DNA of 64,000 nucleotides from an uncultured bacterium (GTDB taxonomy: Bacteria; Chlamydiota; Chlamydiia; Chlamydiales; JAJFMA01), in contig CAYTFC010000003.1 of the NCBI GenBank assembly GCA_964436955.1, positions 4,159-68,158 of the forward strand, in the 5' to 3' direction. Below the pieces are notes generated by a model. It was not told the DNA's origin. It ran no database searches and was given only the letters and a program-made list of their open reading frames with translations. Below, piece after piece: positions 33,867 to 52,819 of this stretch. A program made the position numbers and the translations under genes. Position 1 is the stretch's first letter. Every line of letters begins with the position of its first letter.

Positions 33867-33874
33867 TAGATATC

Positions 33875-34735: not shown

Positions 34736-34737
34736 TC

Positions 34738-35367: not shown

Positions 35368-35379
35368 AGGTCAATAGAC

Positions 35380-36273: not shown

Positions 36274-36291
36274 TTGAAAGGGGCTTAAACG

Positions 36292-36567
36292 ATGTTCCAA
36301 ACACAAGTTGTGCAGCTGGCCTATAAGGGCCTTTTGCTGATTCTCATTCTCTCAGCGCCCCCGATTTTGATCAGTATGTTCTTTGGTATCATCGTGGCTA
36401 TCTTTCAGGCAGCAACGCAAATTCAGGAGCAAACTCTCTCTTTTACGGTTAAGTTGGTGGCTGTTACCTTAGTCTTGATGCTTCTTGGCCCTTGGTTAGG
36501 AGCTCAGATTATGAGTTTGGCAGTTGACGTTTTCAAAAACTTCCCCGTTTGGGCAAGGTCGGGATAA
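36292..36567 (+). CDS. sctS: T3SS export apparatus protein SctS (YscS/FliQ family)
   Basis: 91 aa, FQAATQIQEQTLSFTVKLVAV core motif, two TM helices. Confidence 0.9.
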   Translation: MFQTQVVQLAYKGLLLILILSAPPILISMFFGIIVAIFQAATQIQEQTLSFTVKLVAVTLVLMLLGPWLGAQIMSLAVDVFKNFPVWARSG

Positions 36568-36570
36568 TCG

Positions 36571-37443
36571 ATGGAGGCCGAATCAAATCTTTACCTAGAT
36601 CTCTATTTGAACGGCCATTTTCCTAACAATACGCCCGTATCTTTGCTTTCTATGATGCTGTTGGTTTTAGGACGCATTCTGCCCATTATCTCTCAGTCAC
36701 CCTTTTTGGGTGCACGTGTGTTACCCCACCCGGTTAAGGTGACGTTTGCCATGTCCCTTTTTGTGATTTTTTTGCCCCAACTTTTGATCACTACAGAAAC
36801 ACCTATCGAGTTCAACTTACGTATGGTGTTGCTCATGGCAAAGGAAATTTTCATTGGTTATTCCATCGGATTTTTGATGAGTATTCCGTTTGTTGTGGCT
36901 CAAAACGTGGGTATGATCATAGACCACCAGCGCGGTGGTGCCAGCTTGATGGTGAACGACCCCACTATTCAGAACCAATCATCGCCGATTGGCACCCTTC
37001 TCAACATGATGTTGATCTATTTGTTCTTTGTCATGGATGGTCCTTTTCACTTCATTGAGGGAATTCGCAAATCTTATGAATTAATACCTCTAGACCGGTT
37101 TTTGAGCAGCGCCTTCTTTTCTCCACAGTCTCCAATGTATCGGCTAAACCTCGAAGTCTTCAACACAATGATGGTGCTCACACTGCAACTTTCTGCGCCT
37201 GCATTGCTGACGATTTTGATGACAGACGTCTTTTTAGGTATCGCTAATCGCCTAGCACCTCAAGTACAGATAACCTTTTTAGGTATGCCCTTAAAGTCTT
37301 TGCTGGCCCTCATGATAGTCACGATAGGACTACAGGTGTTTACACAGCAGCTTACGATAGATACCTATAAATGGCTGCAAACAGTCATTAGAGCCATTGG
37401 ATGGTTAACATATGGTCTACCACCTTCTGTTGCCCCAACATAA
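36571..37443 (+). CDS. sctT: T3SS export apparatus protein SctT (YscT/FliR family)
   Basis: 290-aa polytopic membrane protein directly after sctS; DHQRGGA loop typical of FliR/SctT. Confidence 0.85.
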   Translation: MEAESNLYLDLYLNGHFPNNTPVSLLSMMLLVLGRILPIISQSPFLGARVLPHPVKVTFAMSLFVIFLPQLLITTETPIEFNLRMVLLMAKEIFIGYSIGFLMSIPFVVAQNVGMIIDHQRGGASLMVNDPTIQNQSSPIGTLLNMMLIYLFFVMDGPFHFIEGIRKSYELIPLDRFLSSAFFSPQSPMYRLNLEVFNTMMVLTLQLSAPALLTILMTDVFLGIANRLAPQVQITFLGMPLKSLLALMIVTIGLQVFTQQLTIDTYKWLQTVIRAIGWLTYGLPPSVAPT

Positions 37444-37600
37444 CCTTGTCTTTTATACCTTTTTTAGATTCTTATCCTGGCGCTTAAGAGTAAATGCAAT
37501 GTTCCCAATGTCAATTTTAGTTTAAAATATTGTTGATTAAAACTTTAATCATGCTTAAACTGCCTGATATCATTTTTTAATTAATGAGAAGAAATACTTG

Positions 37601-39058
37601 ATGGAGCCACTTCGTGCTGAGTCTAATACCTCGGCGGTCTATTCGAAAAATAACACCCCTCCTATAAAAGATAAGTATTTAAATTATTTACGTGATTATC
37701 TTTGCGTGAATGAAGCACAAGCTCGCTGTGAAAAGGCATATGAATGCTATAGTCAGTTTGCATCTAGCAATCTTGACGATGCTCTTAGAGTGGTAGAGAG
37801 GGTTTTGGAGACCTTGACTACTACGACGCAGACGCCTGATTCCCTGCCTCCTCCTACGGCAGAATCCCTATGGGGTGTAATAGAAAGCGTTGTGTGTATT
37901 CAAGCACATCTTAAAGCAGCAGATTCCTTACAAAGTTACATCCATCAAGATTTTACTTTAAGAAATCTTTTAAATTACATATCAGATCTTTGTATTGGAC
38001 AAGACATTGCAAAAGATGGTCCTTTGCTTTTTGCGGCAGCATTTCTTTTGGACGATTTTCCTGAGATATTTACCCAGAAAGATTTTAGCAGAAGATTGTC
38101 ATTTGGAACATCATCTCTTCTTTGCCGTCTTGTTTTTGAAAATCATACAAATCAACCATTAACGGAGGAATTAGATGCGTTACATGAACGCATAGGGTGG
38201 ATTGTCGCCATAGATTGGCTTGAAAGCAATACCCAGCCAGAGTTTGGCAGTTGTGCCACGCATCTAAGAAGATTGGTCGTAATAGAGCTACAAAAACGCA
38301 CCTCTGAATTGCCACTAGGGCATCAGTTTTTGTTTCCATTAGGTTGGATGTGTATTGAAAAGACTGCCCATGTGATGATTGGAAGATTCACTAAAAGGAT
38401 GGAAGGATTTGAGCTATCTATTATTAATCCTGGGGAAGGAGCTCAGCAATGGCACAATGCCCATAAAGTGCCATTTTCTGCTTATCCATCTATTGAAGAT
38501 ACCGTTACCATGAGTAATATCTCATTGGATGATGCCTTTCAATATCTTGAGCAAGTCATCTCCCTATCAAGTTCTTTAAAGACACAATCTCCTTCCGAGA
38601 TAGTTAAACAGGCATTGGAAGTTCTTTACGGTTTGCGAACCAATAAAGTTGTCTGTTCCTCGCGGTCACAGATACAACGATCGCCTGTATGCGGAGTTAA
38701 AGTTTTGAAACGTTTACGTAAATTGTATGGATCTTGGCAGATACAAGATAAAATGTATGTGCTATCTCTATTTTGGCCTACGATACGCACGACAGTCTTG
38801 GCAAGACACATTATAAACCAACTTAAGCATATTCTTTTAAAAAATTGGTTACTAAGTGTCATCCAAAAGTCGTCGGCCACTCAAATTACAGCATTGGTGA
38901 ATGATTACATCGCGCGGACGAAATATATTCCTGGCAAAGTAGTGGCAGTAGCTTTTTACAATATACCCGAGGAAGGGGCGCTTAAAGACTTTGTGCAATG
39001 TATTCTTAAAAGCTTTCCTGACTGGGCCATTGACTTTGATCATATTGCAGCTGGATAG
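37601..39058 (+). CDS. hypothetical protein (candidate T3SS substrate)
   Basis: 485-aa ORF after sctT behind an AT-rich 150-nt gap; no TM, no signal peptide; see findings for a weak His...Asn...Gln-x4-Cys pattern. Confidence 0.6.
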   Translation: MEPLRAESNTSAVYSKNNTPPIKDKYLNYLRDYLCVNEAQARCEKAYECYSQFASSNLDDALRVVERVLETLTTTTQTPDSLPPPTAESLWGVIESVVCIQAHLKAADSLQSYIHQDFTLRNLLNYISDLCIGQDIAKDGPLLFAAAFLLDDFPEIFTQKDFSRRLSFGTSSLLCRLVFENHTNQPLTEELDALHERIGWIVAIDWLESNTQPEFGSCATHLRRLVVIELQKRTSELPLGHQFLFPLGWMCIEKTAHVMIGRFTKRMEGFELSIINPGEGAQQWHNAHKVPFSAYPSIEDTVTMSNISLDDAFQYLEQVISLSSSLKTQSPSEIVKQALEVLYGLRTNKVVCSSRSQIQRSPVCGVKVLKRLRKLYGSWQIQDKMYVLSLFWPTIRTTVLARHIINQLKHILLKNWLLSVIQKSSATQITALVNDYIARTKYIPGKVVAVAFYNIPEEGALKDFVQCILKSFPDWAIDFDHIAAG

Positions 39059-39107: not shown

Positions 39108-40445
39108 CTAATACGACAAAATGTTCGCGTATACCTTCTCAAACGGTTGCCAGGGATGTACATTGAAGCTTGAATTATGCCAGAGCAGTGTAAATGTGCC
39201 TTTGTACTTTCGGACGCTCTCCACGAGAGACTTGACTTTTTGTGCCATCTCATTAGGAGTCTGTTGTTGATAGATAATAAACGAACCCTCCATGGCAATG
39301 AGCGGCACTTCAATCAGCTTGAGTTTCTGACGTGTTAACACATTAAAAACGGGATAGGGATCGCATATGCCACATCGAAATCCGGGTGCATCGGCGTAAC
39401 CAAGCGTGCTATCATATTCCATGCCATTGTCTTCCCAGACGTTCCATAGTTGTGGAACGTTGCATCTCAAATAGTGTTGTCTTCCTTTGCGTACAGGCCG
39501 TCTAGCAGACTCTTCTAGAAGCTTATGTTCGTTAGTCCATTGCTGTGGATTTTGCAGCGTATTGTAGCTAGGGTGAAAACCTATTTGATGTCCACGAGTT
39601 TGTATTTCGCGAAATAAGGATTGGATGCGATGATCCTTCACTGAATAGGAACTGTCATATTTTGTGCTGCCGCCACTCATAAAGTTAAACTGTGATTGGG
39701 CTCCAACCGCTTCTGAGAGGTTCATCAGATTGGAAAACGTATCATATGGATCGGATCTTCCTAAGTATTTTGTGTGTACAAAGCTCTTCAAATTAGTCAA
39801 AGCTAGCTTGATATCACGACGTTTTAGGATATCTCCAGCACAAACACGTACACCGTTAGTCAATCCATTCCAGCGCCAAGGAAAGTCAACATCGTGACTA
39901 ATATCCCATTTAAAGACTCGTTGTTTACGCGGAGATGTATATCCCAAGTGCCTGAGCATATTGTAGAGCATTTCTGCATATTCATTTACTACAGGACGAT
40001 GAAGGAATCCATCGCGAAACGCTACGCTAGCCAATCCGGGAAAGCGCTCGTGACCATCTCTAACCTTATTGACAGATTCTTCCCAGCGGGTCAGCATGAA
40101 GAATGCGCTAGCCACTAGGTCTATTTGGCAAAGGATGCGCCCTGTCTCGACTACTACATCATTATAACCAAAAATGATGGGAAGATCACTCTCAGGGGCG
40201 AATGGTACGTGTGAAAGACGTACGGATGTTGGTATTTTAGAATACTCGAGAAAGGTATCTCCGTATTTCTCAAAGAAATGATCTACTAGTTTTAGCTGAT
40301 TACCATTAGGTAAACTTAGCACGACGGATTGGACAGTACAATCCACTACGACAACAAAAGAAAAGCCTAAAATTACCTCTAAAAGTACTTCTAAAACATA
40401 TCTACGTTCGGATTCAAATGTGGGTGGTATTGCTATGTTTAGCAT
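39108..40445 (-). CDS. polysaccharide deacetylase-like (NodB-type) protein with N-terminal extra domain
   Basis: WDISHDVDFPW (Asp-Asp-type metal motif) and IGFHPSYNT (H-x-x-x-x His motif); 445 aa. Confidence 0.6.
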   Translation of the reverse strand: MLNIAIPPTFESERRYVLEVLLEVILGFSFVVVVDCTVQSVVLSLPNGNQLKLVDHFFEKYGDTFLEYSKIPTSVRLSHVPFAPESDLPIIFGYNDVVVETGRILCQIDLVASAFFMLTRWEESVNKVRDGHERFPGLASVAFRDGFLHRPVVNEYAEMLYNMLRHLGYTSPRKQRVFKWDISHDVDFPWRWNGLTNGVRVCAGDILKRRDIKLALTNLKSFVHTKYLGRSDPYDTFSNLMNLSEAVGAQSQFNFMSGGSTKYDSSYSVKDHRIQSLFREIQTRGHQIGFHPSYNTLQNPQQWTNEHKLLEESARRPVRKGRQHYLRCNVPQLWNVWEDNGMEYDSTLGYADAPGFRCGICDPYPVFNVLTRQKLKLIEVPLIAMEGSFIIYQQQTPNEMAQKVKSLVESVRKYKGTFTLLWHNSSFNVHPWQPFEKVYANILSY

Positions 40446-40446
40446 A

Positions 40447-41424
40447 TCACATCAAACTTTGACGTAGCGCGCGCAATAATCGTAGCCATTTTGGCTTAGT
40501 GTGCCAGATGTGAAAGTAAGGGGTTTGCTCTCCTCCAAACGCGCGCAGAAAAGGTTCAACTCTTTCGATCATGCTTCCTTCAAAATTTAGAGTTCGACCC
40601 ATTTTAGAGGCTAATTTTATCGCCTCCCAAAATAGAAAACTACTGGCTCCGCTACTCCTCCACATTGGATCCGCTCCCGCCATTAAAGAATGAACTTCTT
40701 GGTTGTCCCAAGCAAGATAAAGTCCCGCATGCATTATTCCCTCTGAGTCTCTGGCAATCAAAATCTCACGACAGCCTTTTTCAGCACATGCCTTATCTAG
40801 TGATTTAATGGCGGCATCCGAATTAGGCACCTGTTTGTTTTGCCGCTCAAACGTTTTCCTTTGAATGTCGAGTAAACTGCGCAAGTCTTCTCCGAAAGAA
40901 CATGTCAGTTGCTTAGAAGCCTTCCGAATATCCGTCTTAATATTGCCCTTAAAGCTATTAAAGACAGCCTCAGGATTAGATAAATCTTTAAGAATGTATG
41001 TATATCGCACACTTGACTGAAAACCTTTCCAGTAGCAAGGCAACCAATTAGTTACGGAGTGATGCAAATACTGATTAAAATGCGCGATATTGGGGAAATC
41101 GGATAGGAGTTCAGTGTATATTTCGCATTCATAAGATGCCTTAGATACATGCTTTTGTCCTTTCGGATAGCTTAAAAATGGCCCCATTCTAGGAGTCAAT
41201 GGTGGCATATTAATCGTGGTTATCCCTAGTTTTTTTTTGGTAAAATAGGGCCAAACGCCGGCTACTTTGCCTTCCCGATAGACAATGGAGGCATCCCATC
41301 CTTCGATGCCGCAAACAGCATCTAACCAAAATGGCTGCACGTATAGTGGAAGAGCGGCGTGTTCATTCGCAAATTGACGGTAGGCGGTTTGTTTTTTTAA
41401 CTGCGCCATTTGTGAGCCTTGCAA
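40447..41424 (-). CDS. FemAB-like / GNAT-fold acyl- or aminoacyl-transferase
   Basis: 325 aa, two-lobed GNAT-like pattern (ILIARDSEGIMHAGLYLAWDNQEVHSLMAG ... SSFLFWEAIKLASKMG); 1-nt gap to the downstream deacetylase-like gene. Confidence 0.5.
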   Translation of the reverse strand: MQGSQMAQLKKQTAYRQFANEHAALPLYVQPFWLDAVCGIEGWDASIVYREGKVAGVWPYFTKKKLGITTINMPPLTPRMGPFLSYPKGQKHVSKASYECEIYTELLSDFPNIAHFNQYLHHSVTNWLPCYWKGFQSSVRYTYILKDLSNPEAVFNSFKGNIKTDIRKASKQLTCSFGEDLRSLLDIQRKTFERQNKQVPNSDAAIKSLDKACAEKGCREILIARDSEGIMHAGLYLAWDNQEVHSLMAGADPMWRSSGASSFLFWEAIKLASKMGRTLNFEGSMIERVEPFLRAFGGEQTPYFHIWHTKPKWLRLLRALRQSLM

Positions 41425-41452: not shown

Positions 41453-42187
41453 TTACTCCGATGCTAATCTAGCTAATACTCCACCATCACAGACAAATTC
41501 TTGGCCTGTGATACTACCTGATAAATCCGTATTCGCCAAAAATAAGGCGAGGGATGCAATTTCTTCGGGCCGTACAATACGGCCTAAAGGAGTAGATCTC
41601 TCTAAACGAAGCTTGGCCTCTTCATATTCTGAAGATCTGCTTAGGCTTCTTTTGAGCATCTCTGTGTTCACAGCTCCTGGCAAAATAGCATTCACGCGGA
41701 TATCAAGGGGCGCTAATTCAAGAGCAGCAGCTCGAGTAAATGCGCTCATCCCCCCTTTAGAGGTGACATAGGCGCACATTCCAGCCGAGGTCGCTCTGGC
41801 ATGAACCGACGAAATGTTCACAATCGAGCCTCCACTTAGTACTGGAGCAAATGCTTTGGTCATATAGAATGCGCCATTCAAATTAGTGGACATCACACGG
41901 TCCCATTCATCGATTGAGGTATCTAGTAACGATTTTTCGATCTGAATTGCCGCATTGTTAACCAAACAGTTAATGGTGCGATTCTCGGCTATGAATGCAT
42001 CTGCGAGACGTATCACTTGTGCTGGCTTACTAATATCTAACTCGATGTAGTTCCAGGCGCATTCGCTAGGCTTATCAGTGATGTCTAAACCGGTTACAAT
42101 CCATCCACGTTCAAAAAAGAGGTCTGCTATGGCTCTGCCAATACCTTGATTGCATCCAGTGATTAGAACATGCTTATTGTTGACCAA
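41453..42187 (-). CDS. short-chain dehydrogenase/reductase (SDR)
   Basis: VLITGCNQGIGRAIA cofactor motif, NISS, YVTSKGG (YxxxK) catalytic motif. Confidence 0.85.
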   Translation of the reverse strand: MVNNKHVLITGCNQGIGRAIADLFFERGWIVTGLDITDKPSECAWNYIELDISKPAQVIRLADAFIAENRTINCLVNNAAIQIEKSLLDTSIDEWDRVMSTNLNGAFYMTKAFAPVLSGGSIVNISSVHARATSAGMCAYVTSKGGMSAFTRAAALELAPLDIRVNAILPGAVNTEMLKRSLSRSSEYEEAKLRLERSTPLGRIVRPEEIASLALFLANTDLSGSITGQEFVCDGGVLARLASE

Positions 42188-43097
42188 TACCTAGCCCCTC
42201 CAGAAGCATATTAACGGAATTGATATGGACACGATCCCAACATACCAAGCTGCTGTTGGAGTTATGTGCGGCGAGGAAGACATTATTCATGCTACGTAGA
42301 GGGCTATTCAAGGCCAAGGGCTCGTGCTCAAAGACGTCTAATCCAGCTCCGGAAATTTGTTTGGTTTGCAAAGCCTGGACGAGATCAGATTCGTTAATTA
42401 ATGGCCCTCTGCCAGTATTGATAATAAAAGGACGGCGTTGCATTTGTGCAAAAGTAGCGGAGCTTAGGATATGCCTGGAGGTGGAATTAAGGTCGCAATG
42501 CAGAGAGATGATATCAGACTGACGTACTAACGTAGGAAGATCAACCATGGTGACATGTTCTTGTTCTTTTGACAAAATGTCATACGCCAAAATGCGCGCT
42601 CCACATGCTTGAAGTCGCTTTGCGAAGGCGGATCCTATTGCGCCGAGTCCAATGATTCCCACAGCGAGTTCAGAAAGGGCATATCCTTGTGGTTTGTGCC
42701 AGCCACCGCTCTTAAGAATGGAGTCATTGACAACGACATTGCGACAATAAGCTAGGGCATAAGCCAATGCTGTATCCGCAACGGGATCGGTGAAGGCGTT
42801 GGGGGTGCGGTAAACCTTAACCTGATATTTTTCGGCTTCGTCTTTCTGGATGGAATCGATACCGGTTCCCCATTTGACAACGACTTTAAGGTCTTTAGAT
42901 TGTTTATAGACGCTTTCACTAAAGCGATCATCCCCACAGATGATGCCATGCGCACCATTGAGATAGTGGATGAGCTCAGGTTCCTCAAGACGCTCTTCAA
43001 CGGCGGCCCAAACAACCTCTAAGGGTATTCCGCTTAAGAGAGGTTCGACCTTATGACGCTCACGCAGCATATAGGGCGCTGAAATTACGACTTTCAT
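42174..43097 (-). CDS. D-isomer-specific 2-hydroxyacid dehydrogenase family protein
   Basis: GIIGLGAIGSAFAKRL NAD motif, INTGRGPLINESDL, LDVFEHEP, AAHNS catalytic His region. Confidence 0.85.
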   Translation of the reverse strand: MKVVISAPYMLRERHKVEPLLSGIPLEVVWAAVEERLEEPELIHYLNGAHGIICGDDRFSESVYKQSKDLKVVVKWGTGIDSIQKDEAEKYQVKVYRTPNAFTDPVADTALAYALAYCRNVVVNDSILKSGGWHKPQGYALSELAVGIIGLGAIGSAFAKRLQACGARILAYDILSKEQEHVTMVDLPTLVRQSDIISLHCDLNSTSRHILSSATFAQMQRRPFIINTGRGPLINESDLVQALQTKQISGAGLDVFEHEPLALNSPLRSMNNVFLAAHNSNSSLVCWDRVHINSVNMLLEGLGIGQQ

Positions 43098-43101: not shown

Positions 43102-44661
43102 TCACATACTCTCTTTTGTCAATATGGCTCGTAGGGGAGCGCCATCGAGGTTTGGTAGATGCAGAGGTAGAGCGATAAGTTTGTATTTGCCGGGAGTTAC
43201 ATGCTTAAGATGTAGCCCCTCAACAATAATGGTATTTGCCTTCAGAAGAATTTCATGTGTGGCATTTGTGGGATCTTCAAACGCTTGTATCGAAGGTCCA
43301 TCGGTACCGATTAGATGGATGCCTTTTTGTACCAATAACTCAGCACTTTCGGGAGTAATTGCGATAAATTTTGGATCGAATTCTCCACACATTTCGGAAT
43401 TCTTTGTTTTAAGTAGAATGCGCGTAGTGGCAGCGGGAATATTTGCTGCGAGGAAGAACGACGGTTGGATATGGCCATTTCCGCGGTATTCTAGGACGTG
43501 AGCTTCGCCAATTAATTTGTCTAACCCGATGTCATGTGTAAAGGAACCGTCTTCAACAAAATGAAAGGGGGCATCCAGATGGGTTCCTGAGTGGGCACTT
43601 AACGAAACATGCGAAACATTGTGGCCATGTTCTGCCATCGTTTTGGTTTGAGAAATCTTTACGGGATGGTCGCCTGGCCACACAACCATACTAGAGGTAA
43701 TTGGTCGAGAAATGTCGATATATTCAGGTTTCATCGATGGCATATTGCTTTGCTGGCTAAAGGGCTTACGTGGGTAATAAAGTCGCCTACGCATCCCATC
43801 AGACATCGGTTCGCGATAGCGGTAGGCACGGAAAGTGCCCCAAAACTGCAAAAAGCGAAATAGCGGAATATCCATGAGGTTTGTGAGTAGTTTTCCATCC
43901 CTCAACGCATGGAAATAGTCTCCAATCGTATTCATGAGAGAGAATTTGGCAAAGCTCCACAAACCGAAATGATGATCCTTAAAGATCTCTTTGTAAGCTA
44001 GAGCCTCGCGGTAGTAGCGTCGATAGATCTGTGTGCTGGTTTCATCATGAATATGATAAACACTGGCTTCAGCAATGTATGCAATGCGATGGCCTTTTTG
44101 AAGGATGGCTTTGCCCCATGCGATGTCCTCTAGACCTGAGAGTGTTTCGTCAAATGGAGTTTGGTCCCATAAAGACCTTCGAATGGCCGAGTTGGCATTG
44201 TTGCAAAAGGCAAGCCCACAATCGGGATTGCTTTCCAGGGGAAACCATTTAGCAAAGATCTGATGTTCGGAATAGCGGGTTTGTTCATCACCTTGTTGAC
44301 GACCATAAACAAGCCCCACATTACTATCACGGCGAAGAGGTTCTACTAGATATTTCAACCACAATGTATTGGTGGGGTGGCAGTGTGCACTGATAACGAC
44401 TACTATGTTACCTTGTGCTTTGGCAATTCCCTGGTTTAACGAATAGCCAAATGTAAACTTCTCCGGAGATATTGTGACAATTTGTACAGGATAATCTCTG
44501 ACGATATCTAAAGTACCATCAATAGAACCAGAATCAACGACGATCACTTCAAAGGCAAGATCTATTTGTTGTGCATGAATTTCCTGAAGAAGACTCCCAA
44601 TATGCCTTGCTTCATTGTGAGTGCGGATGACAATGGAAATTTCGGGTTGCATCGAAGGCAT
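43102..44661 (-). CDS. fusion protein: N-terminal family-2 glycosyltransferase + C-terminal cyclase/kynurenine-formamidase-like domain
   Basis: GT2: ISIVIRTHNE, VIVVDSGSIDGT, LEDIAWG; cyclase family: AHSGTHLDAPFHF (HxGTHxDxPxH). Confidence 0.8.
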   Translation of the reverse strand: MPSMQPEISIVIRTHNEARHIGSLLQEIHAQQIDLAFEVIVVDSGSIDGTLDIVRDYPVQIVTISPEKFTFGYSLNQGIAKAQGNIVVVISAHCHPTNTLWLKYLVEPLRRDSNVGLVYGRQQGDEQTRYSEHQIFAKWFPLESNPDCGLAFCNNANSAIRRSLWDQTPFDETLSGLEDIAWGKAILQKGHRIAYIAEASVYHIHDETSTQIYRRYYREALAYKEIFKDHHFGLWSFAKFSLMNTIGDYFHALRDGKLLTNLMDIPLFRFLQFWGTFRAYRYREPMSDGMRRRLYYPRKPFSQQSNMPSMKPEYIDISRPITSSMVVWPGDHPVKISQTKTMAEHGHNVSHVSLSAHSGTHLDAPFHFVEDGSFTHDIGLDKLIGEAHVLEYRGNGHIQPSFFLAANIPAATTRILLKTKNSEMCGEFDPKFIAITPESAELLVQKGIHLIGTDGPSIQAFEDPTNATHEILLKANTIIVEGLHLKHVTPGKYKLIALPLHLPNLDGAPLRAILTKESM

Positions 44662-44865: not shown

Positions 44866-44930
44866 CTTGGTATGGACATCGGATTCCTGGTATCGTTTTG
44901 ATATTCAACTCACAACCGCAGGGGACCAAA

Positions 44931-45677
44931 ATGAAGATCGTAGGTTGCATTCCCGCACGAATGGGGTCAAGTCGCTTTCCTGGAAAGCCTATGGAATTGA
45001 TCCATGGTGTACCGATGATTGGTCACGTCTATCTTAGAGCACGAGAGGCCACTTCCTTGAATGGGCTTTATGTAGCAACCTGTGATCAGGTAATCTTCGA
45101 TTACATCACCTCCATCGGAGGGATTGCAATTATGACTAGTGATGAACATCCAGGTTGTGTAGATCGTTGTACTGAAGCCTTATATGTTATAGAACAGCTA
45201 CAGGGAAAGCAGGTCGACGTGATGGTGATTATTCAGGGCGATGAACCTTTACTACGTCCAGAAATGATCGACGATGCGATTGCACCACTTAAGCAAGACC
45301 CTTCTATTTCCATTTCTAACTTGATGGGCCGCATTGAGGATCCTAAAGAGTTTAGTGATATCAATGAAATCAAGGTTGTGGTGGATTGTCATAGCAATGC
45401 TCTTTATTTTTCAAGAGAGCCAATTCCCTGCGGAAAAAAGGGGGAGGGCCATGCAAATCGATGGAAGCAAATTTGCATTATGCCAATACGTCGTGACTTG
45501 TTAATTCGATTTGGCGAAATGCCGCGCACATCACTAGAGATCTGTGAATCAATCGATATGTTAAGGCTATTGGAGAATGGTATTCCCGTTCGTATGGTGC
45601 CTACAAATCATGTGATGAAGAGTGTTGATACTCTAGAAGATCTTATTAAGGTTCGCGAATTAATGGAGGTTCATTAG
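44931..45677 (+). CDS. KdsB-like 3-deoxy-manno-octulosonate (or related ulosonic acid) cytidylyltransferase
   Basis: MKIVGCIPARMGSSRFPGKPM, IIQGDEPLL, ALYFSREPIP align by eye to E. coli KdsB; ATG 44931 preferred over TTG 44898. Confidence 0.8.
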   Translation: MKIVGCIPARMGSSRFPGKPMELIHGVPMIGHVYLRAREATSLNGLYVATCDQVIFDYITSIGGIAIMTSDEHPGCVDRCTEALYVIEQLQGKQVDVMVIIQGDEPLLRPEMIDDAIAPLKQDPSISISNLMGRIEDPKEFSDINEIKVVVDCHSNALYFSREPIPCGKKGEGHANRWKQICIMPIRRDLLIRFGEMPRTSLEICESIDMLRLLENGIPVRMVPTNHVMKSVDTLEDLIKVRELMEVH

Positions 45678-47449
45678 CCCGACGCCTCCACTGCTACCGG
45701 GTCTGTGCATAGGCGTTGGTAGAGATTAGATGTTTCTAACAACTCTTGATGCGTACCTTTCATCACAATGCGTCCAGCTTCTAGTACATGGATGCAATCA
45801 AAATTCTCAACTGTTGAAAGGCGATGCGCAATAGCTACTATCGTTTTACGACCAGCCATCTCCTTAATTGCTTGAGCGATGATCGATTCAGAAATATGAT
45901 CTAACGACGAAGTGGCTTCGTCAAACACAAGTATTTCTGGCTGATGGTAAAGCGCCCTAGCAATTCCCACGCGTTGCTTTTGTCCTCCTGAGAGCCTCAC
46001 GCCCCGTTCGCCAACGTGAGTGTTTGCTTTTTCAGGAAGTGTTTGCACAAATTCATGAAGATGGGCCATTACCAATGCATCGTGTAGCTTTTGGGTATCG
46101 ATAGTGGACTCACCAAATGCCACATTTTGAGCGATCGAGCCATCGACCAATGCGATGTCTTGCGGAACATAGCCAATTAGGTGCTTAATGCCCTGTAAAC
46201 TATGAACTGATTTGCCATCGATTTGGAATTTTCCTGAGTCAGGGGATAGTAAAGAAATCAGAATATCGACAAGAGTGCTTTTACCTACTCCAGATGGGCC
46301 CACAAAGGCAACCGAAGAATTTTTCATAATTTGGAAGCTAACGTCGTGTAAAACCTCTACGTCGTTTGAATAGGAGTAACATACATTTTCGAATGCTAAG
46401 CTACTTAAAAAGCTCCTTGCATGAGGCGAAAACTCTTGGTGCGTTGTTTCAATGTTTTTATGAAGTTCGAGATCTAAGCACTGCAAAGAGGCCTGAAATG
46501 CCTGCATTTGTATCCGTTGAGATACCACCTGGTTCACTGCGGGTAACAATCGCCTTCCCACTGCTCCCAGAAACAACATCGGAGCCACCAATTCAGAAGC
46601 GGGCCAATTCGAAAGTATCCAAACAACGACTACGCCTAGTAAGCCTATAAGAGCCACATATTCAATCAAGACCATAGGCACGGTTGGGTAGTAGACTGTT
46701 ACTGTTTGCGATCGTGCAATGCGCTTCACATAGCTGTCAAACAGCGAAGAAAAGTAGTTCTGTTTTTCATACAGCTTGACTTCTTTAAAGCTTAAAAGAC
46801 CATCGCTAATTGTTTGAAAAACTTTTGGAAAAATTGTTTCTTTTTCTTCTCCAGCCGCATTCATCGGTTTCTTTACAAGATGGTGCATCCAAGCACCAAT
46901 AAGTCCAAATAACGCAATCACTCCCATGGACAAAGCGAAAAATTCGGTTAATATCAGTATGGTCAAAAATATGGTCATGACGATAGCAGCAAGATAACGT
47001 AGATACTGCACCAGCGCATTTGCGCATTGGTCAATCGTAGTGGTACAGTTCTTCAGAAATAGCCCTGTATTACCTTTGATAAAGTCCTGATAGTTTTGAT
47101 GCAGATACCGATTAAAGATAAACAGCGCTTTTCTGCGATAGAATTGATAGGGAAATTTTGCAATTTGGTAGTTGAGGTACATCTGTAGCACAGATTTAAT
47201 GGTGATAGAAAGGCAGAATAGAACGGTAAGCCAAATGACTAGTTCCTTAGCTGTCCATTCCAAACCTGTCCAAACTTGTGCTACAGCAATGACGCGCTCC
47301 GGGTTACTGAGGACCTCCACATAGGGCACGATTAAAGCCAAGCCGAATGACTCGAAAAGAGAAAAGAAAATCATCAGGGCAAGGATAGCAAAAAAGCTAC
47401 GCTTTTCTTGAGTATTAAGGACGGCGATAATTAGCTTCCAGTTAGTCAC
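45674..47449 (-). CDS. ABC exporter, fused permease-ATPase (MsbA/PglK-like half transporter)
   Basis: 6-TM N-terminal domain; Walker A GPSGVGKST, signature LSGGQKQR, Walker B ILVFDEATSSLD. Confidence 0.9.
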   Translation of the reverse strand: MTNWKLIIAVLNTQEKRSFFAILALMIFFSLFESFGLALIVPYVEVLSNPERVIAVAQVWTGLEWTAKELVIWLTVLFCLSITIKSVLQMYLNYQIAKFPYQFYRRKALFIFNRYLHQNYQDFIKGNTGLFLKNCTTTIDQCANALVQYLRYLAAIVMTIFLTILILTEFFALSMGVIALFGLIGAWMHHLVKKPMNAAGEEKETIFPKVFQTISDGLLSFKEVKLYEKQNYFSSLFDSYVKRIARSQTVTVYYPTVPMVLIEYVALIGLLGVVVVWILSNWPASELVAPMLFLGAVGRRLLPAVNQVVSQRIQMQAFQASLQCLDLELHKNIETTHQEFSPHARSFLSSLAFENVCYSYSNDVEVLHDVSFQIMKNSSVAFVGPSGVGKSTLVDILISLLSPDSGKFQIDGKSVHSLQGIKHLIGYVPQDIALVDGSIAQNVAFGESTIDTQKLHDALVMAHLHEFVQTLPEKANTHVGERGVRLSGGQKQRVGIARALYHQPEILVFDEATSSLDHISESIIAQAIKEMAGRKTIVAIAHRLSTVENFDCIHVLEAGRIVMKGTHQELLETSNLYQRLCTDPVAVEASG

Positions 47450-47955
47450 TTTTTCGCTCCTACCGATTGTAAATCGGGAATAAGGCCATTCTTTAATAGG
47501 TATGTGGAACTGAATACGATGTCGTCAGTATAGTAGATGCGCCCGCCCACTGCTTCGATAGCCGCAATTTCTTCCTGCAGTTTAACGTCATCTGGCGTTT
47601 TCTGATACTCAATGCCTTTAATGTAAATGCTTGGAGCTAGCAGACGTATCGTAGGAGCCGCTGAGGGCCATCGATTGAGGCCAACATAATCAATGATGGA
47701 TAGAGCATTCAAATATTCACAACGTTGCCGGTGATTAAAAAAAGGTCTGCCTGGGCCTTTATTTACATAGCGATCTTCAGTCACCGTCACCACTAGAACA
47801 TCGCCTTGGCTCTTTGCTTCTTCAAAGTGCTTAAGGTGGCCGTAGTGTACAAGATCAAAGCACCCATGACAGTGAACGACACAAGTTCCCTGAGATTTTT
47901 TTAATGCGATTATTGCTGCCAGCTCATCTAGGTCTTTAATTTTATTTAAATCCAT
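47446..47955 (-). CDS. HxGH-type cytidylyl/adenylyl-transferase (RfaE domain II / TagD-like)
   Basis: HGCFDLVHYGHLKHFEEAK nucleotidyltransferase motif; IKGIEY ... GGRIYYT ... SSTYLL as in HldE domain II. Confidence 0.8.
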   Translation of the reverse strand: MDLNKIKDLDELAAIIALKKSQGTCVVHCHGCFDLVHYGHLKHFEEAKSQGDVLVVTVTEDRYVNKGPGRPFFNHRQRCEYLNALSIIDYVGLNRWPSAAPTIRLLAPSIYIKGIEYQKTPDDVKLQEEIAAIEAVGGRIYYTDDIVFSSTYLLKNGLIPDLQSVGAKK

Positions 47956-49447
47956 ATTTCAGCCCTTGTCTTAGATCCTCTATAGAAACCGGAATATTAC
48001 CTGTGCGGCTAACCTGGCATGCTGCAGCAAGACTGCCTAAAAAGGCACTTTCCCAAAGACTACCCCCAGCAATTAGAGTTAGGGCTGCGGCTGTCAGCAG
48101 GGAATCACCAGCGCCGGCAACGTCTTTTGGAGAGCTGTTAAGCGCTGGTAGCTTGTCTGTATGGAAAATAGACGAACCCGCTTCTGCGGAATACATAAGA
48201 ATACCTTCAGCGCCTAAAGTGATCACAACGTTCTGAGCATTACATTTATGGCAAAGGTTTTGAGCCAATACAGCCAAACCAGAATCATAGTCCTTTAGGG
48301 CAATTCGGGCTTCGCGCTCAGTGGGAGTAATGAGTTTCATTCCCATAAACCGTGATACGTCACCAATTTGTGAGGAGGACTGACTGTCTGCGACCATGGC
48401 AATGCCCTTGTCTGTGCAATGACGAGTAAGGACATCTACCATTGATTGGGGCAAACAGCCGTAGCTAAAATCGGAAAAAATGACGACGTCACATCCCTCA
48501 ATGCACTCTTGAAGGTCTTTCAACATGCGTTGAGATGTTTCATTCGAGATCGCATGTTGTCGCAGATGGTTAACTCGCAATAACGTTTTTCCTGCCGCGC
48601 GAAAACGTTGCTTGAGTGTAGTAGGTCGCTCGGGTTCAACATAAAATGTGGCCTTCACACCTTCTTGCATTAAGCGCTGACGAACAAAACTAGCAGGTTC
48701 ATCCTGACCTAATACGGAAAAGAACGAAACTTCTGCTCCTAAGCGCTTAGCATGGGCTGCAACTATAGCCGCTCCCCCCACAAACGTTTCGCGCATTAGA
48801 GGGCTGACAACTATGGTAGGATCCTCCTGTGACATGCCTAAGGCTTCACAATCAATGTATTCATCAATAATGGTATCTCCAATCACGCATACTTTGACGG
48901 AGGTAAATGATTCAAAAAGAGTAGGTAGGCGATGCAGTCCGCTTCCATGGCGCTCTAAAAAATTCGATGGAATATGGATGCCTGTTGCGGAGACCTCCTT
49001 GATCTGTTTTCTCAATAGATCAAAAGATGAAAACCCGATGTCTCCAGAGCAAAAGGCTAAGCGTCCTCCATACTTTTGTAATACCGCGGTTTCAGGATTA
49101 TCTCTTCCCTCGTGTTCCTTACCCTTAACAACAATTTCGGGACGCAGCCATTCCACAATTTGAGCAGATGGATCGCGCATGATGAATGCATGATCTACCC
49201 AAGTTGTCTCCTGAATTGCTTCCAAACGAATGGCCTCTGGCAGAAGAGTATCTGGAAAATCGTCTGATGTGACCCCCACAACCAAGCAATCGCCACTTTC
49301 AGCAGCGAAGCGTAATAGGCGTAAATGGCCAGGGTGAAGGATATTGAAATTGCCTGGGACAAAAACAATGCTACTGCCAGTACCGGCCTTGATCCTTATC
49401 TGTTCTAGATAATCCTTGCAGTTAACGGGAACTGTATTTGACACCAT
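47942..49447 (-). CDS. bifunctional HldE-like protein with inverted domain order (N-terminal HxGH nucleotidyltransferase + C-terminal PfkB sugar kinase)
   Basis: N-term PGNFNILHPGHLRLLRFA; C-term VCVIGDTIIDEY ... GGAAIVAAHAKRLGA ... DVAGAGDSLLTAAAL (PfkB signature). Confidence 0.8.
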   Translation of the reverse strand: MVSNTVPVNCKDYLEQIRIKAGTGSSIVFVPGNFNILHPGHLRLLRFAAESGDCLVVGVTSDDFPDTLLPEAIRLEAIQETTWVDHAFIMRDPSAQIVEWLRPEIVVKGKEHEGRDNPETAVLQKYGGRLAFCSGDIGFSSFDLLRKQIKEVSATGIHIPSNFLERHGSGLHRLPTLFESFTSVKVCVIGDTIIDEYIDCEALGMSQEDPTIVVSPLMRETFVGGAAIVAAHAKRLGAEVSFFSVLGQDEPASFVRQRLMQEGVKATFYVEPERPTTLKQRFRAAGKTLLRVNHLRQHAISNETSQRMLKDLQECIEGCDVVIFSDFSYGCLPQSMVDVLTRHCTDKGIAMVADSQSSSQIGDVSRFMGMKLITPTEREARIALKDYDSGLAVLAQNLCHKCNAQNVVITLGAEGILMYSAEAGSSIFHTDKLPALNSSPKDVAGAGDSLLTAAALTLIAGGSLWESAFLGSLAAACQVSRTGNIPVSIEDLRQGLKYGFK

Positions 49448-49473: not shown

Positions 49474-51444
49474 TTAGTATGCTTTTGCCAACTTGGGTTG
49501 GAGAAGCGTTGTAGACCCAGGCCCGACTGGGAGTAGTTTTGGGTGCTGTCTATCAATGAACCAATGATACCACAGTTCGAAATTGGCGAAATACAATAGC
49601 CGGCGAGCGGCTCGTGTAGTACCAGATCTGTCATTGAGCACGTCTTCTAGAGCCGAGCGCTTAAAGACAGCTCGCTCTTTAAGCTGCTCCACTCGCTTTC
49701 GCAACACCTGCTCTATTGATCCGGTAATAAAGTCGGCTTCTGGTATGCCAAAGCCCTTTTTCTTCATTTCCAAGCAGGAAGGATGGATGTATTTTGCACT
49801 TAGTTTTCGTAAAAGATACTTGGATTGATCTTTACGCCATTTCAAATGGGTGGGTAAGCGGAAGCAGAATTCCACCAAGTCGCGATCTAGATAGGGAAAC
49901 CTGCCCTCTATATGAAACCGCATCAAAAACCTGTCTGAGGTATGATTGTGATGAGTTCCTATATAGAATTTCATGTCTGCATAAGACAAAGCTTGGAATG
50001 AGTCCGTGAACTTTTTTAGATCTGGCGAAGCGCTTCTGATAGCTGCTAGTGCATCAATATTATCGTCTAAAAGATTATCTGCAAAGACGCTCGCGGGATT
50101 TTCATAAAGGTAGGAAGCAAAGAGTCTTCTAAAGATATCAAAGGGATCACTACTTTCCATGATTCGCGCAGCGGTTGTAAGGCGACCTTTTCGAGGGATA
50201 AAAGGTGCCAAAAAGGAAAGATGCTTCAACCATGGCCAATGTTGCTGGAGGTTTCTGTAGTATCCATACCCTCCCATCAATTCATCCGGTCCAAGTCCGT
50301 TTAAAATAACGCGAATTCCATGTTTTGAGATATTTTGTGCAATGGGGTAGTGTGGTTCTAAAGCTCCAATAGGTTCTTCAAATACCCATAGCATATCATC
50401 CAGAGAACCCATTAAGTCTTCTTTGCGAAACCTTGTAATGGTATGTGACAAGTTATGCATTTTTGCAGTTGCATGCGCCTGATCCAGTTCACTCAGGGAA
50501 TCAAGCGCTGTGTCATATGCCAATGTAAAGGCTCGGATAGTCGGGTGCATACTTGCAGCTATCGCCGTCATGGTTGTGGAATCTAACCCACCGCTCATGA
50601 GTGTCCCTACTTCCACATCAGCGATCAAGCATCTCTTGATAGCTTGATGAAGAAGCTCTTCGTAACGCTCTAAAGCCTTTTCTTCGCTAATGTCCAGCTG
50701 CTGACCTACTGGCAAATCCCAGTATTGAACAATTTGCTTTGAACCAACAGCTCTACCACTTAAGTAATGGCCAGGAGATAGCGCAAAGGCATCTTTGTAA
50801 GAGGTAGATGGCCTGGGAGAGCCCTGAAAAGCTATTCCTAAACAGAGTCCATTCCAGTTCGGTTTTGGATCGTAAAGGCCAGAAGCAATCAGAGTTGTCA
50901 TGTCCGAAGCAAAGACAAAGGAGCTCTCTCTTTGGTGATAGTATAACGGTTTTATTCCGATACAATCCCTAGCAATAAAAATAGAACGCTCCACAGCATC
51001 ATAAATGGCAAAGGCATACATGCCGCGAAATTTATCCAGTGCGTTATTACCCCATTGAAGATAGGCCTTTAGAACGACTTCGGTATCCGAGTCGCTGTAG
51101 AAATCCCATCCATGGCTTTCAAGTTCAGTACGAATCTCCAAAAAATTGTAGACCTCGCCATTGTACGTAAGCCAAAAGCGTCCTGAAGAAGCAGACATTG
51201 GCTGCGCTGCGCGATCGCTCAGATCGATAATTTTTAGGCGCGTATGCAGCAATGCGCCGAATACTAACGTATTGGGGTCTATCGCTTCGTTGAATGATGA
51301 AACCGTGCCTTGATTTGTGAAGAATACCCACCCTTGACCATCAGGACCACGGTCATAAAGAGTGCTTAAACAGCGTTGAGCCATCGCCAATGCCAGAGTA
51401 AAAGGCAGAGGATTGTCCAGAAAGAAGCCGGCAATACCACACAT
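49474..51444 (-). CDS. asparagine synthase (glutamine-hydrolysing)-family amidotransferase
   Basis: MCGIAGFF Ntn-Cys start, PP-loop LMSGGLDST; 656 aa. Confidence 0.9.
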   Translation of the reverse strand: MCGIAGFFLDNPLPFTLALAMAQRCLSTLYDRGPDGQGWVFFTNQGTVSSFNEAIDPNTLVFGALLHTRLKIIDLSDRAAQPMSASSGRFWLTYNGEVYNFLEIRTELESHGWDFYSDSDTEVVLKAYLQWGNNALDKFRGMYAFAIYDAVERSIFIARDCIGIKPLYYHQRESSFVFASDMTTLIASGLYDPKPNWNGLCLGIAFQGSPRPSTSYKDAFALSPGHYLSGRAVGSKQIVQYWDLPVGQQLDISEEKALERYEELLHQAIKRCLIADVEVGTLMSGGLDSTTMTAIAASMHPTIRAFTLAYDTALDSLSELDQAHATAKMHNLSHTITRFRKEDLMGSLDDMLWVFEEPIGALEPHYPIAQNISKHGIRVILNGLGPDELMGGYGYYRNLQQHWPWLKHLSFLAPFIPRKGRLTTAARIMESSDPFDIFRRLFASYLYENPASVFADNLLDDNIDALAAIRSASPDLKKFTDSFQALSYADMKFYIGTHHNHTSDRFLMRFHIEGRFPYLDRDLVEFCFRLPTHLKWRKDQSKYLLRKLSAKYIHPSCLEMKKKGFGIPEADFITGSIEQVLRKRVEQLKERAVFKRSALEDVLNDRSGTTRAARRLLYFANFELWYHWFIDRQHPKLLPVGPGSTTLLQPKLAKAY

Positions 51445-51463: not shown

Positions 51464-52534
51464 CTAAGTCAATGATAATCCCTTAAAAAAGCTTCGAAAT
51501 TCCTGAAACACTAGTTCTGGGTGCAAGGCCCACAGGCATGCATGATCGGTGCAATCGACAGCATTCTTAAATCGGCTGGTATTTCTTCCTACCCAAACAT
51601 TACAAGGTCCACAAGAAGGGTTAGAGGAAACATCTCGATGCATTTTAGGATTTAGCCACTCATAGCCAAATTGACTGGGGCTTGAACCACCCCAAACAAT
51701 GAAGGTGGGCTTCTTAAGGGAAGCAGCAATATGCATTAAACCGCTATCATGTCCAACAAGAACACTGCTTTGTTTAATAATATTCATAACCTCACTCAGA
51801 TTTGTCTTCCCAACTAGAGATGCTACCCCAGGAATATTCTCCTGCATAATTATTTGAGCATTGATCTGCTCGTTTTTATCGCCCAGTAAAATAAACTGAT
51901 GGCTTCGAAAGGCTTTTGATGCCATTTTGAGCCACTCTATCCAGTATTCTAATGGCCACGTTTTAAAGGCAAAAAGGTTATTCGCCGCGGTAGGCTGAAT
52001 GGCAATATAGGGCAAAGTTGTGTCTATGGAAGTAGGCTGCGCGGTTGAAAAACATCTTGCTATAGTATCCTCTGAAAATGCCATCATATCAGGCAACATA
52101 TCGTCATTTGTGGCATGGGGGACGCTAAGGCGCAGATTTTGAATTGCAGCATGAATACCTGTTGCGGGTGGTTGAGTAGTAGCATTTGCTCCTAGAAGCA
52201 GCCACAGTCTTTTTCCTTCTAGGGTGCCGATGATTTTGCGTCCTATCAATCGAGAGGTGAGGATGTTTTCCTTCGTTGCAGCTAGATAGCTGAGATAGAC
52301 TTCGTCAAACGCTTTATAGTTGTCTTTTACCAGACCAAATAGCGAGGCCATTGAGTCTTGGATAGAAATGGCGTTATCTAAAAGGCCGGTATCTTTGAAT
52401 AATACATCAGAGAAGTATTGCGATTGAAATATACCGGTGACGATACGCCCAGTTGCCTTTAGATTTTTTAATAAAGGAATCATGAGCAACGCATCGCCAA
52501 GTCCGGCGTTAATGTAGACAGCAGCTCGTATCAC
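51464..52534 (-). CDS. glycosyltransferase family 9 (LPS heptosyltransferase-type)
   Basis: GLGDALLMIPLLKNLK N-terminus, VGHDSGLMHIAASLKKPTFIVWGG C-terminal motif; GTG start. Confidence 0.8.
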   Translation of the reverse strand: MIRAAVYINAGLGDALLMIPLLKNLKATGRIVTGIFQSQYFSDVLFKDTGLLDNAISIQDSMASLFGLVKDNYKAFDEVYLSYLAATKENILTSRLIGRKIIGTLEGKRLWLLLGANATTQPPATGIHAAIQNLRLSVPHATNDDMLPDMMAFSEDTIARCFSTAQPTSIDTTLPYIAIQPTAANNLFAFKTWPLEYWIEWLKMASKAFRSHQFILLGDKNEQINAQIIMQENIPGVASLVGKTNLSEVMNIIKQSSVLVGHDSGLMHIAASLKKPTFIVWGGSSPSQFGYEWLNPKMHRDVSSNPSCGPCNVWVGRNTSRFKNAVDCTDHACLWALHPELVFQEFRSFFKGLSLT

Positions 52535-52755: not shown

Positions 52756-52784
52756 TTGTCAAAAATAAGTTATTTCAATATTGT
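52756..52784 (+). promoter_or_regulatory. promoter candidate (TTGTCA - 17 nt - TATTGT) for the 52820 gene
   Basis: Hexamers at 52756-52761 and 52779-52784; the implied start site lies downstream of TTG 52781, which supports ATG 52820. Confidence 0.35.
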
Positions 52785-52819
52785 GCAGTGCAGTTTTTCA
52801 TAACCGAAGGCAGGCAACC

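Follow-up and report, generated by a model that had tools for sequence, protein, structure and literature searches.

We analysed a 64,000-nucleotide stretch of DNA from an uncultured bacterium of the order Chlamydiales (contig CAYTFC010000003.1 of assembly GCA_964436955.1, positions 4,159 to 68,158 of the forward strand), called the window in what follows. It carries an uninterrupted open reading frame (ORF) in which a glycosyltransferase family 2 (GT2) domain is followed by a linker and by a cyclase domain resembling the kynurenine formamidase KynB (Table 1). The gene lies on the minus strand, a point not stated in the preliminary description of this DNA, which had been made from the sequence alone, and it opens a tightly packed operon (44661 down to 39108) within a surface-glycan region. 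Genes for a 2-hydroxyacid dehydrogenase (2-Hacid_dh) and a short-chain dehydrogenase (SDR) follow it, and a cytidylyltransferase gene of the CTP_transf_3 family is transcribed divergently. The set formed by GT2, optional cyclase and these three partners is referred to as the cassette; it is present in Chlamydiota-like bacteria, cyanobacteria, Chloroflexota, Bacteroidota, Deinococcota and several proteobacterial lineages.

Pfam recognised both domains above the gathering thresholds, Glycos_transf_2 (PF00535) at aa 9-164 (E 9e-21, 74.9 bits against 23.3) and Cyclase (PF04199) at aa 315-458 (E 4.5e-18, 66.3 bits against 23.1). The preliminary description had placed a GT2 in the ~300 N-terminal aa and a cyclase/kynurenine formamidase domain in the last ~200, and all the motifs that it quoted were found again: ISIVIRTHNE (aa 8-17), VVDSGSIDGT (aa 41-50), LEDIAWG (aa 177-183) and AHSGTHLDAPFHF (aa 356-368). 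Its further claim, that no stop or frameshift separates the two halves, was borne out by the intact ORF, by independent assemblies and by orthologues. The identical fused protein is on record in NCBI, in ENA and, with the same neighbours, in an independent Logan assembly of SRR5855237, and about 39 clusters (90% identity) among the best 120 homologues share the GT2+cyclase architecture, aligning over the full length at 41-65% identity. These clusters span several phyla and include metagenome-assembled genomes (MAGs) labelled Bacteriovorax, Bdellovibrionales and Thermodesulfobacteriota; one fused homologue is labelled by JGI as 'kynurenine formamidase/GT2 family glycosyltransferase'. Because so many clusters align full-length, the architecture is common in databases, and the earlier statement that it was undescribed holds for the literature, where we found no paper characterising it, and not for sequence collections. 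The metal-binding residues of the C-terminal domain are all present. With the ORF intact and these residues kept, neither of the two findings that the preliminary description had named as refuting it, an interrupted junction or a lost metal site, was made. We conclude that this is almost certainly a real, conserved bifunctional protein belonging to the cassette.

Table 1. Features of the fused gene and of its neighbours (positions in the window).
Feature	Position	Strand	Basis
Whole fused ORF, 519 aa: GT2 domain, linker and cyclase/KynB-like domain	43102..44661	-	ORF call, Pfam, NCBIfam, homologues, AlphaFold
GT-A/GT2 domain, aa 1-~296	43774..44661	-	Pfam, DXD alignment, invariance in 120 homologues, secondary structure
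Linker, aa ~297-311	43729..43773	-	AlphaFold pLDDT, internal repeat
Cyclase/kynurenine-formamidase-like binuclear metal hydrolase domain, aa ~312-519	43102..43728	-	Pfam, NCBIfam, KynB structures, PMC4243253
D-isomer 2-hydroxyacid dehydrogenase, conserved cassette member, 4 bp downstream of the fusion	42174..43097	-	Domain scans
Classical SDR, conserved cassette member, overlaps the 2-hydroxyacid dehydrogenase gene	41453..42187	-	Domain scans, solved homologues
CTP_transf_3 cytidylyltransferase, KdsB subfamily PRK13368, cassette member, divergently transcribed	44898..45677	+	Domain scans
FemAB/GNAT-like acyltransferase, same operon, lineage-specific (here and L002 only)	40447..41424	-	Domain scans
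DUF7033, VimE-like sugar-nucleotide deacetylase, last gene of the operon, lineage-specific	39108..40445	-	Domain scans
PglK/MsbA-like ATP-binding cassette (ABC) exporter	45674..47449	-	Domain scans

An AlphaFold model of the fusion, with 25 homologues as input, gave two well-folded domains (mean predicted local distance difference test, pLDDT, 89.5) and a disordered linker (pLDDT <50 for aa 298-309); with a predicted template modelling score (pTM) of only 0.58, the model does not fix how the two domains lie to each other, nor whether their active sites face each other. At the domain junction, the N-terminal MPSMQPE (aa 1-7, 44641-44661) recurs as MPSMKPE (aa 307-313, 43741-43761), the two being alike in 6 of 7 aa and 21 of 36 nucleotides, and any such repeat occurred in only 3 of 200 shuffles. 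The linker is probably a former intergenic region together with an old cyclase start: the junction looks like the kept start of a once separate cyclase gene, with M307 and M310 as possible internal starts.

The GT2 domain belongs to a tightly conserved subfamily, about 50% identical across phyla, without the canonical metal motif of GT2 enzymes. The DXD motif, which binds the divalent metal and the nucleoside diphosphate of the donor, was not found in it; at the position of 'DCD' in the chondroitin polymerase K4CP and 'ADD' in WrtF it has S91-A92-H93, hence our name S-A-H for the subfamily. In all 120 homologues, fused or not, S91 and H93 are unchanged, as are D43-S-G-S46, E178-D179 and H203/H205; R161 is conserved in 119 of them, and R215 and R218 are also invariant, among several invariant Arg and Asn. 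With the classical GT2 enzymes (SpsA, DPMS/GtrB, K4CP, WrtF, PcManGT), its best neighbours in structure, the domain has in common the GT-A fold, the N-terminal D-x-S nucleotide-binding motif and the E-D pair, whereas these enzymes have a DXD where the whole subfamily has S-A-H in addition to the invariant H203/H205. The pair E178-D179 (in LEDI), at the usual position of the catalytic base after the acceptor loop, would act as the acidic catalytic base. AlphaFold places amphipathic C-terminal helices (aa ~209-295) after the GT-A core. Foldseek matches of this domain are generic GT-A enzymes (PcManGT, WrtF, K4CP), and no CMP-dependent GT-A family was seen among the top 50.

The C-terminal domain has the fold of KynB (template modelling score 0.91 and root-mean-square deviation 1.7 A when the AlphaFold model is superposed on 4cog). 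Solved KynB structures match aa 312-514 (E ~5e-34), and those compared (PDB 4co9, 4cog, 4cob) are 32-35% identical to the domain and have the same HxGTHxDxPxH motif, which reads H357-S-G-T-H361-L-D363-A-P-F-H367 here. W328, H357, H361, D363, H367, H469 and E481 correspond to Trp20, His50, His54, Asp56, His60, His161 and Glu173 of BaKynB, in which His50, His54, Asp56, His161 and Glu173 are zinc ligands and His60 is the base (PMC4243253). All six binuclear-zinc ligands of KynB, and the Trp of its WPGD motif (W328), are thus retained, and H357, H361, D363, H469, E481 and the base H367 are invariant in 25 fused homologues. As KynB is an obligate dimer in which the partner subunit completes the active site (PMC4243253), the C-terminal domain, by analogy, probably dimerises too.

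In three other respects the domain departs from KynB. The match of aa 314-515 to the arylformamidase model TIGR03035 (NCBIfam) has an E value of 7e-50, yet its 169.9 bits lie below the equivalog cutoff of 223.05. In the hydrophobic aryl-binding pocket, Leu158 of KynB is replaced by N466, a near-invariant Asn among fused homologues, Val40 of the partner subunit is deleted, and Val42 is V349 here and Glu in most homologues ('GVNES' consensus); the pocket is therefore more polar than that of an aryl-formamidase. As to genomic context, neither tryptophan 2,3-dioxygenase nor kynureninase was found in the scanned ORFs of the window (37.6-63.5 kb) or in 80 related loci (see below). A true KynB, P0166, adjoins a kynureninase gene, unlike the cassette cyclases, and the latter separate from the P0166 set in a neighbour-joining tree; P0166 apart, the gene contexts of the stand-alone cyclases closest to the domain were uninformative. 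More distant enzymes of the same fold (isatin hydrolase, the cyclase-phosphotriesterase 8f9x, the esterase MGS0169 and trans-dienelactone hydrolase) are 19-22% identical in structural alignments; MGS0169 and dienelactone hydrolase have Gln at the first two His of the motif, whereas the domain has the classical His motif. Besides formamidases, PF04199 contains a metal-dependent esterase and trans-dienelactone hydrolase (PMC5341072), as well as a cyclase-phosphotriesterase that 'efficiently degrades lactones' (PMC9371700), so that lactams, lactones and carboxyl esters are also substrates of the family (PMC9371700, PMC5341072).

The neighbourhood of the GT2 gene was then compared across genomes. 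A scan of one genome per species yielded 556 relatives, and the best 80 loci were analysed. These were picked by GT2 sequence patterns, which biases the sample; ORFs were called by a simple script and families assigned by BLAST thresholds, some genes having probably been missed, and the counts given here cover the loci themselves. The loci belong to Saprospiraceae, Cytophagales (Larkinella, Spirosoma), Mucilaginibacter, Anaerolineae and other Chloroflexota, cyanobacteria, Trueperaceae, deltaproteobacterial MAGs and others. The genes typically follow one another as GT2, cyclase when present, CTP_transf_3 (~228 aa, PseF-like type), 2-Hacid_dh and SDR. Cytidylyltransferase, 2-hydroxyacid dehydrogenase and SDR all lie within 6 kb in 39 of the 59 loci with adequate flanks, and 23 of these 39 also have the cyclase. 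GT2 and cyclase are adjacent but separate in 24 of the 80 loci (gap mostly -4 to +21 bp, often a 4-bp overlap) and one gene apart in 3. They are fused in a single locus of the scan (L010), which brings the fusions to five with the window and the separately examined L002, L003 and L004. No cyclase is present within at least 4 kb in 33 of the 80 loci; Larkinella arboricola has one, whereas it is missing from the same locus of L. humicola and L. punicea. Cultured bacteria that carry the cassette include L. arboricola DSM 21851, Spirosoma flavum, Mucilaginibacter kameinonensis and Thermocoleostomius sinensis. In the neighbour-joining tree, which carries no support values, fused cyclase domains occupy at least three positions (fused P0037, for instance, is nearest to the separate gene of L019), which implies repeated fusion or fission. 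We conclude that the fusion is one between operon neighbours, arisen or split more than once, and no proof that both active sites act on the same sugar.

Fusions of the S-A-H GT2 to other domains point to the same partners. An exhaustive HMMER search against 1.84 billion cluster representatives produced 742 matches at E <1e-30, with 39 long proteins (>480 aa) in the top 150. The commonest fusion among these 39 (19 proteins) is to a zinc dehydrogenase of the medium-chain family (MDR), 14 of them also matching Glu_dehyd_C. The cyclase is the partner in 4, a hydrolase of the metallo-beta-lactamase (MBL) fold in 3, 2-Hacid_dh in 1, and CTP_transf_3 in 3, in both domain orders. Proteins P0247, P0249, P0264, P0288, P0289 and P0310 are S-A-H fusions to CTP_transf_3, MDR zinc dehydrogenase or MBL-fold hydrolase. 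In locus L090 the order is 2-Hacid_dh, cyclase, radical-SAM, GT2 fused to MDR dehydrogenase, and a KdsB-like gene whose product is 56% identical to the cytidylyltransferase of the window; L091 has the GT2-MDR dehydrogenase fusion followed by 2-Hacid_dh. The L090 cassette holds two radical-SAM genes, one of them B12-binding. The MBL and MDR variants are confined to more distant members of the GT2 subfamily, and in the 80 loci no MBL-fold or MDR substitute was matched in cassettes without cyclase or SDR. Taken together, adjacency and fusions link the GT2 to a ulosonic-acid-type cytidylyltransferase, a D-2-hydroxyacid dehydrogenase, a second dehydrogenase (SDR or MDR) and a metal hydrolase of the cyclase or MBL fold, which is often absent.

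Two lineages have surroundings of their own. In five Saprospiraceae loci (L009, L054, L058, L079, L085) the GT2-cyclase pair mostly lies beside very large proteins of one family; the member scanned, that of L058, combines an M43 peptidase domain with PKD and SprB repeats and ends its list of matches with CHU_C, a type IX secretion signal. In the scans of L058 and L085, FkbM-type methyltransferase genes are adjacent, a sulfotransferase gene is so in L058, and a Uma2-family nuclease gene lies between GT2 and cyclase in two of these loci. Neither 2-hydroxyacid dehydrogenase nor SDR was found in the five, and a cytidylyltransferase in at most one. Cassettes of Anaerolineae and other Chloroflexota (for example L069, L074, L077 and L084; mostly monoderm lineages) are flanked by sulfotransferases, by a KpsC/KpsS-like Capsule_synth or a DUF4910 aminopeptidase-like protein, and by a large multi-pass membrane protein which, by eye, looks like an ArnT/PMT-type GT-C. 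These flanks suggest a sulfated acidic polysaccharide.

The interpretation that we favour, with a probability of about 0.4, is that the cassette would lead from an aldose through its lactone, the aldonate and a 2-keto acid to a CMP-sugar and its transfer, the cyclase domain serving as a dispensable lactonase. The SDR, or in other lineages the MDR dehydrogenase, would oxidise the aldose to the aldonolactone; the cyclase domain, replaced in some lineages by the MBL-fold hydrolase and absent in many, would open the lactone; the 2-hydroxyacid dehydrogenase would oxidise C2 to give a 2-keto (ulosonic) sugar acid; the cytidylyltransferase would make the CMP-sugar; and the DXD-less GT2 would transfer the sugar to a lipid-linked glycan, then handled by the adjacent ABC exporter. 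It is from sequence and gene context that we infer in what order the steps would follow, which substrates they would use and that the GT2 would depend on CMP.

Several properties of the partners are in keeping with such a route. SDR and MDR families both include aldose 1-dehydrogenases, and the best solved homologues of the SDR in the window are the aldohexose/glucose 1-dehydrogenases of Thermoplasma. For the 2-hydroxyacid dehydrogenase, the nearest enzymes act by oxidising (phospho)aldonates at C2 or by reducing 2-keto acids. Cytidylyltransferases of family PF02348 activate 2-keto sugar acids such as Kdo (3-deoxy-D-manno-oct-2-ulosonate) and nonulosonic acids; that of the window, by its score, falls in the KdsB subfamily (277 bits against the PRK13368 cutoff of 255), and its closest solved structure is the capsule-type K-CKS 1gq9 (148.6 bits). 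A CMP-sugar donor is predicted for the GT2 from the fusions to CTP_transf_3 and from adjacency, and the S-A-H motif would fit it, since CMP-sugar transferases are generally devoid of DXD. The two hydrolase folds found at the same position, cyclase and MBL, both include lactonases, which fits a lactonase role; the more polar pocket would fit a sugar-derived substrate, and the dispensability of the hydrolase would be explained by the fact that lactones also open spontaneously. The unusual sugars listed for the K antigens of E. coli include hexulosonic acid (PMC4702918).

The kinds of system involved are already known, namely nucleotide-sugar supply with its transferase and a glycosyltransferase with an accessory hydrolase, and the fusion and cassette are a variant of these. 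As in the supply of CMP-Kdo and CMP-nonulosonates (KdsB/KpsU, NeuA, PseF), a PF02348 cytidylyltransferase adjoins a transferase, and some clusters related to the cassette also share a KpsC/KpsS-like Capsule_synth protein with CMP-Kdo-type systems. Unlike them, the cassette has neither an aldolase-type synthase (KdsA/NeuB) nor KdsC/KdsD, and its transferase is a GT-A/GT2 enzyme rather than a member of GT30, GT99, GT107 or a sialyltransferase family. In place of the synthase the cassette has two dehydrogenases and an optional hydrolase, which implies that the keto acid is reached by oxidation and not by condensation. In the literature we found no paper describing the fusion, the S-A-H subfamily, the cassette or a CMP-hexulosonate. 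That the cassette specifies an undescribed oxidative route to a CMP-2-keto-aldonic (hex-2-ulosonic-type) acid, and that with the S-A-H enzymes the use of a CMP-sugar would for the first time be seen in GT2-type GT-A enzymes, is a bolder proposal which, considered jointly, we regard as less likely than not.

A number of observations weigh against the lactonase pathway. The proposed sugar and the activities of the cassette enzymes are all read from sequence. The closest characterised relatives of the C-terminal domain are formamidases, the KynB enzymes compared above, not lactonases. The advantage of the aldose dehydrogenases over FabG-type matches of the SDR is small (132 against ~120 bits), and the best solved homologues of the MDR partner are threonine and alcohol dehydrogenases, glucose dehydrogenases ranking lower. 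We know of no CMP-sugar-using GT2; loss of DXD does not prove metal independence, as H93 with H203/H205 could bind a metal, and where a KpsC/KpsS-like Capsule_synth protein is present it may be the user of the CMP-sugar instead. Finally, in three Saprospiraceae loci the GT2-cyclase pair stands without the other three cassette genes within 6 kb, and further Saprospiraceae loci have no gene for the two dehydrogenases, which argues for a tighter link between GT2 and hydrolase.

This last point bears on the best of the alternatives, which we nevertheless hold to be unlikely: that the hydrolase strips an N-formyl or N-acyl group from the sugar just transferred by the GT2, or from its lipid-linked product, as in the pairs ArnC/ArnD, PgaC/PgaB and NodC/NodB. 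The preliminary description had suggested such a coupling on the model of ArnC/ArnD. Pairs of glycosyltransferase and deacylase are a well-known theme, and like the fusion the Arn system joins a GT2-family transferase to a hydrolase in the modification of envelope glycans; the relatedness to formamidases and the complete KynB metal site would be accounted for at once, GT2 and cyclase are the tightest pair of the cassette (fused or adjacent in ~30 loci, some of them in Saprospiraceae without other cassette genes nearby), and the operon of the window has other N-acyl chemistry, with its VimE-like deacetylase and FemAB-like genes. The comparison does not extend to the enzymes themselves, as ArnD has a polysaccharide-deacetylase and not a cyclase fold, ArnC-type enzymes have the DXD that is absent here, and with the ArnC model NF007986 the score is 14.7 bits, the cutoff being 529. 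Nor was a source of the group to be removed found: Pfam detected no formyltransferase in the ORFs of 150 aa or more scanned from 37.6 to 63.5 kb, the 25 largest gene families of the 80 loci included no recognisable one (part of the families being scanned), and an aminotransferase family (DegT) is present in only 6 of these loci, so that ArnA-like formyltransferase, ArnB-like aminotransferase and amino-sugar genes in general are not conserved with the cassette. The distribution of the hydrolase is also difficult to reconcile with deformylation. It is missing from ~40% of otherwise complete cassettes and from close relatives in one genus, it adjoins the 2-hydroxyacid dehydrogenase and not the GT2 in L090, in other lineages the GT2 has an unrelated MBL-fold hydrolase as its fusion partner, and the residues lining the aromatic-substrate pocket of KynB are replaced by polar ones. 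The coupling first suggested is thus not supported; the recurrent partners are a cytidylyltransferase and two dehydrogenases, and the fusions of the GT2 to each of them and to the MBL-fold hydrolase indicate a pathway of precursor supply.

Within precursor supply, the hydrolase could act on another bond, as a KdsC-like phosphatase dephosphorylating a 2-keto-6-phospho-aldonate derived from 6-phosphogluconate, or as an esterase removing an O-acyl group. We consider this doubtful, and more so than deacylation. Phosphoglycerate dehydrogenases, the closest relatives of the 2-hydroxyacid dehydrogenase, act on phospho-aldonates, the MBL-fold proteins at the same position could be phosphoesterases, and PF04199 does include carboxylesterases and phosphotriesterases, but the cyclase-phosphotriesterase that has been characterised showed no significant phosphatase or phosphodiesterase activity (PMC9371700). 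A phosphatase step, moreover, would not be dispensable in ~40% of cassettes, and the SDR or MDR dehydrogenase would be left without a role. Last, a fusion created by an assembly join, a missed stop or a frameshift, or an ordinary KynB of tryptophan catabolism joined by chance, is effectively excluded, for whereas a single window cannot by itself exclude a one-base error and the arylformamidase model matches with a very low E value, the independent assemblies, the ~39 clusters, the score below the TIGR03035 cutoff, the gene context and the tree all speak against it.

The true start of the cytidylyltransferase is probably the ATG near 44931. An exporter similar to that of Table 1 lies near the cassette in L002, L003, L004 and L005. 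The last gene of the operon has DUF7033 and scores 201 bits with the model of VimE (UDP-GlcNAc3NAcA deacetylase), below the equivalog cutoff of 440, so that it is VimE-like only. Upstream of the fusion start (>45.6 kb), and mostly on the minus strand, come the ABC exporter, two nucleotidyltransferase genes (one fused to pfkB) and an AsnB-like amidotransferase gene, as well as genes for a GT9 protein, a GmhA-like isomerase, a HAD phosphatase, an acyl-AMP ligase, a second SDR and epimerases. Scans for promoters and terminators at the locus gave nothing above chance, and Rfam and tRNA scans of the window found three tRNAs only, all distant from the locus.

Two further gene sets were noted in this region. 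The AsnB-like gene (49474-51444, minus strand) shares it with the deacetylase and acyltransferase genes (39108-41424, minus strand), and the close relative L002 (14067-21596) has WbpA-, WbpE- and WbpB/D-like genes too; by sequence, these genes together resemble the Porphyromonas Wbp/Vim pathway for an N-acyl-exchanged 2,3-diamino uronic acid. The second set is heptose-pathway-like (47446-49447, minus; 51464-52534, minus; 54454-55050, plus; 58982-59602, minus), all members scoring below equivalog cutoffs. It comprises a protein with the nucleotidyltransferase before the pfkB kinase domain, the reverse of HldE, an extra nucleotidyltransferase of 169 aa, a GT9 heptosyltransferase-like protein, a GmhA-like SIS isomerase and a HAD-IB phosphatase, and is unexpected in a chlamydial genome.

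Elsewhere in the window, type III secretion genes (32886-37443, plus strand) follow one another as sctJ, unknown, sctL (PRK06328, 260 bits above cutoff), sctR, sctS, sctT, and an unusually long penicillin-binding protein 2 (PBP2, 1139 aa) and SecA are encoded (4741-8160, minus; 24387-27452, plus). By these features, too, the genome is probably that of an environmental member of the Chlamydiota. Three ORFs of 486-529 aa had no Pfam match at the thresholds used: 37598-39058 (plus), scanned by Pfam only and placed between the secretion genes and the glycan operon, and 52781-54370 (plus) and 55069-56616 (minus), both inside the glycan region and also free of NCBIfam matches. For the ORF at 60729-62036 (435 aa), a TIGR04372 glycosyltransferase domain was the sole match.

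The value of the locus lies less in the fusion itself than in the widespread, uncharacterised cassette that it revealed. Even if the proposed pathway is wrong, the cassette is a well-defined module, and the natural presence or absence of the hydrolase makes it easy to test. If the pathway is right, thousands of genes that now carry the labels 'glycosyltransferase', 'arylformamidase', 'phosphoglycerate dehydrogenase' or 'KdsB' would receive functional names. Kdo and sialic-acid-like sugars are known from routes of phosphoenolpyruvate condensation; many bacteria would, in addition, put on their surface glycans an acidic keto sugar made by oxidation of an aldose. Chlamydiae are usually thought to have a minimal lipopolysaccharide, and the oxidative route would occur in an apparent environmental chlamydia too. 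In that case the DXD-less GT2 subfamily would form a class of CMP-sugar transferases new to science, and glycobiology would gain a nucleotide sugar, a biosynthetic logic and a type of transferase.

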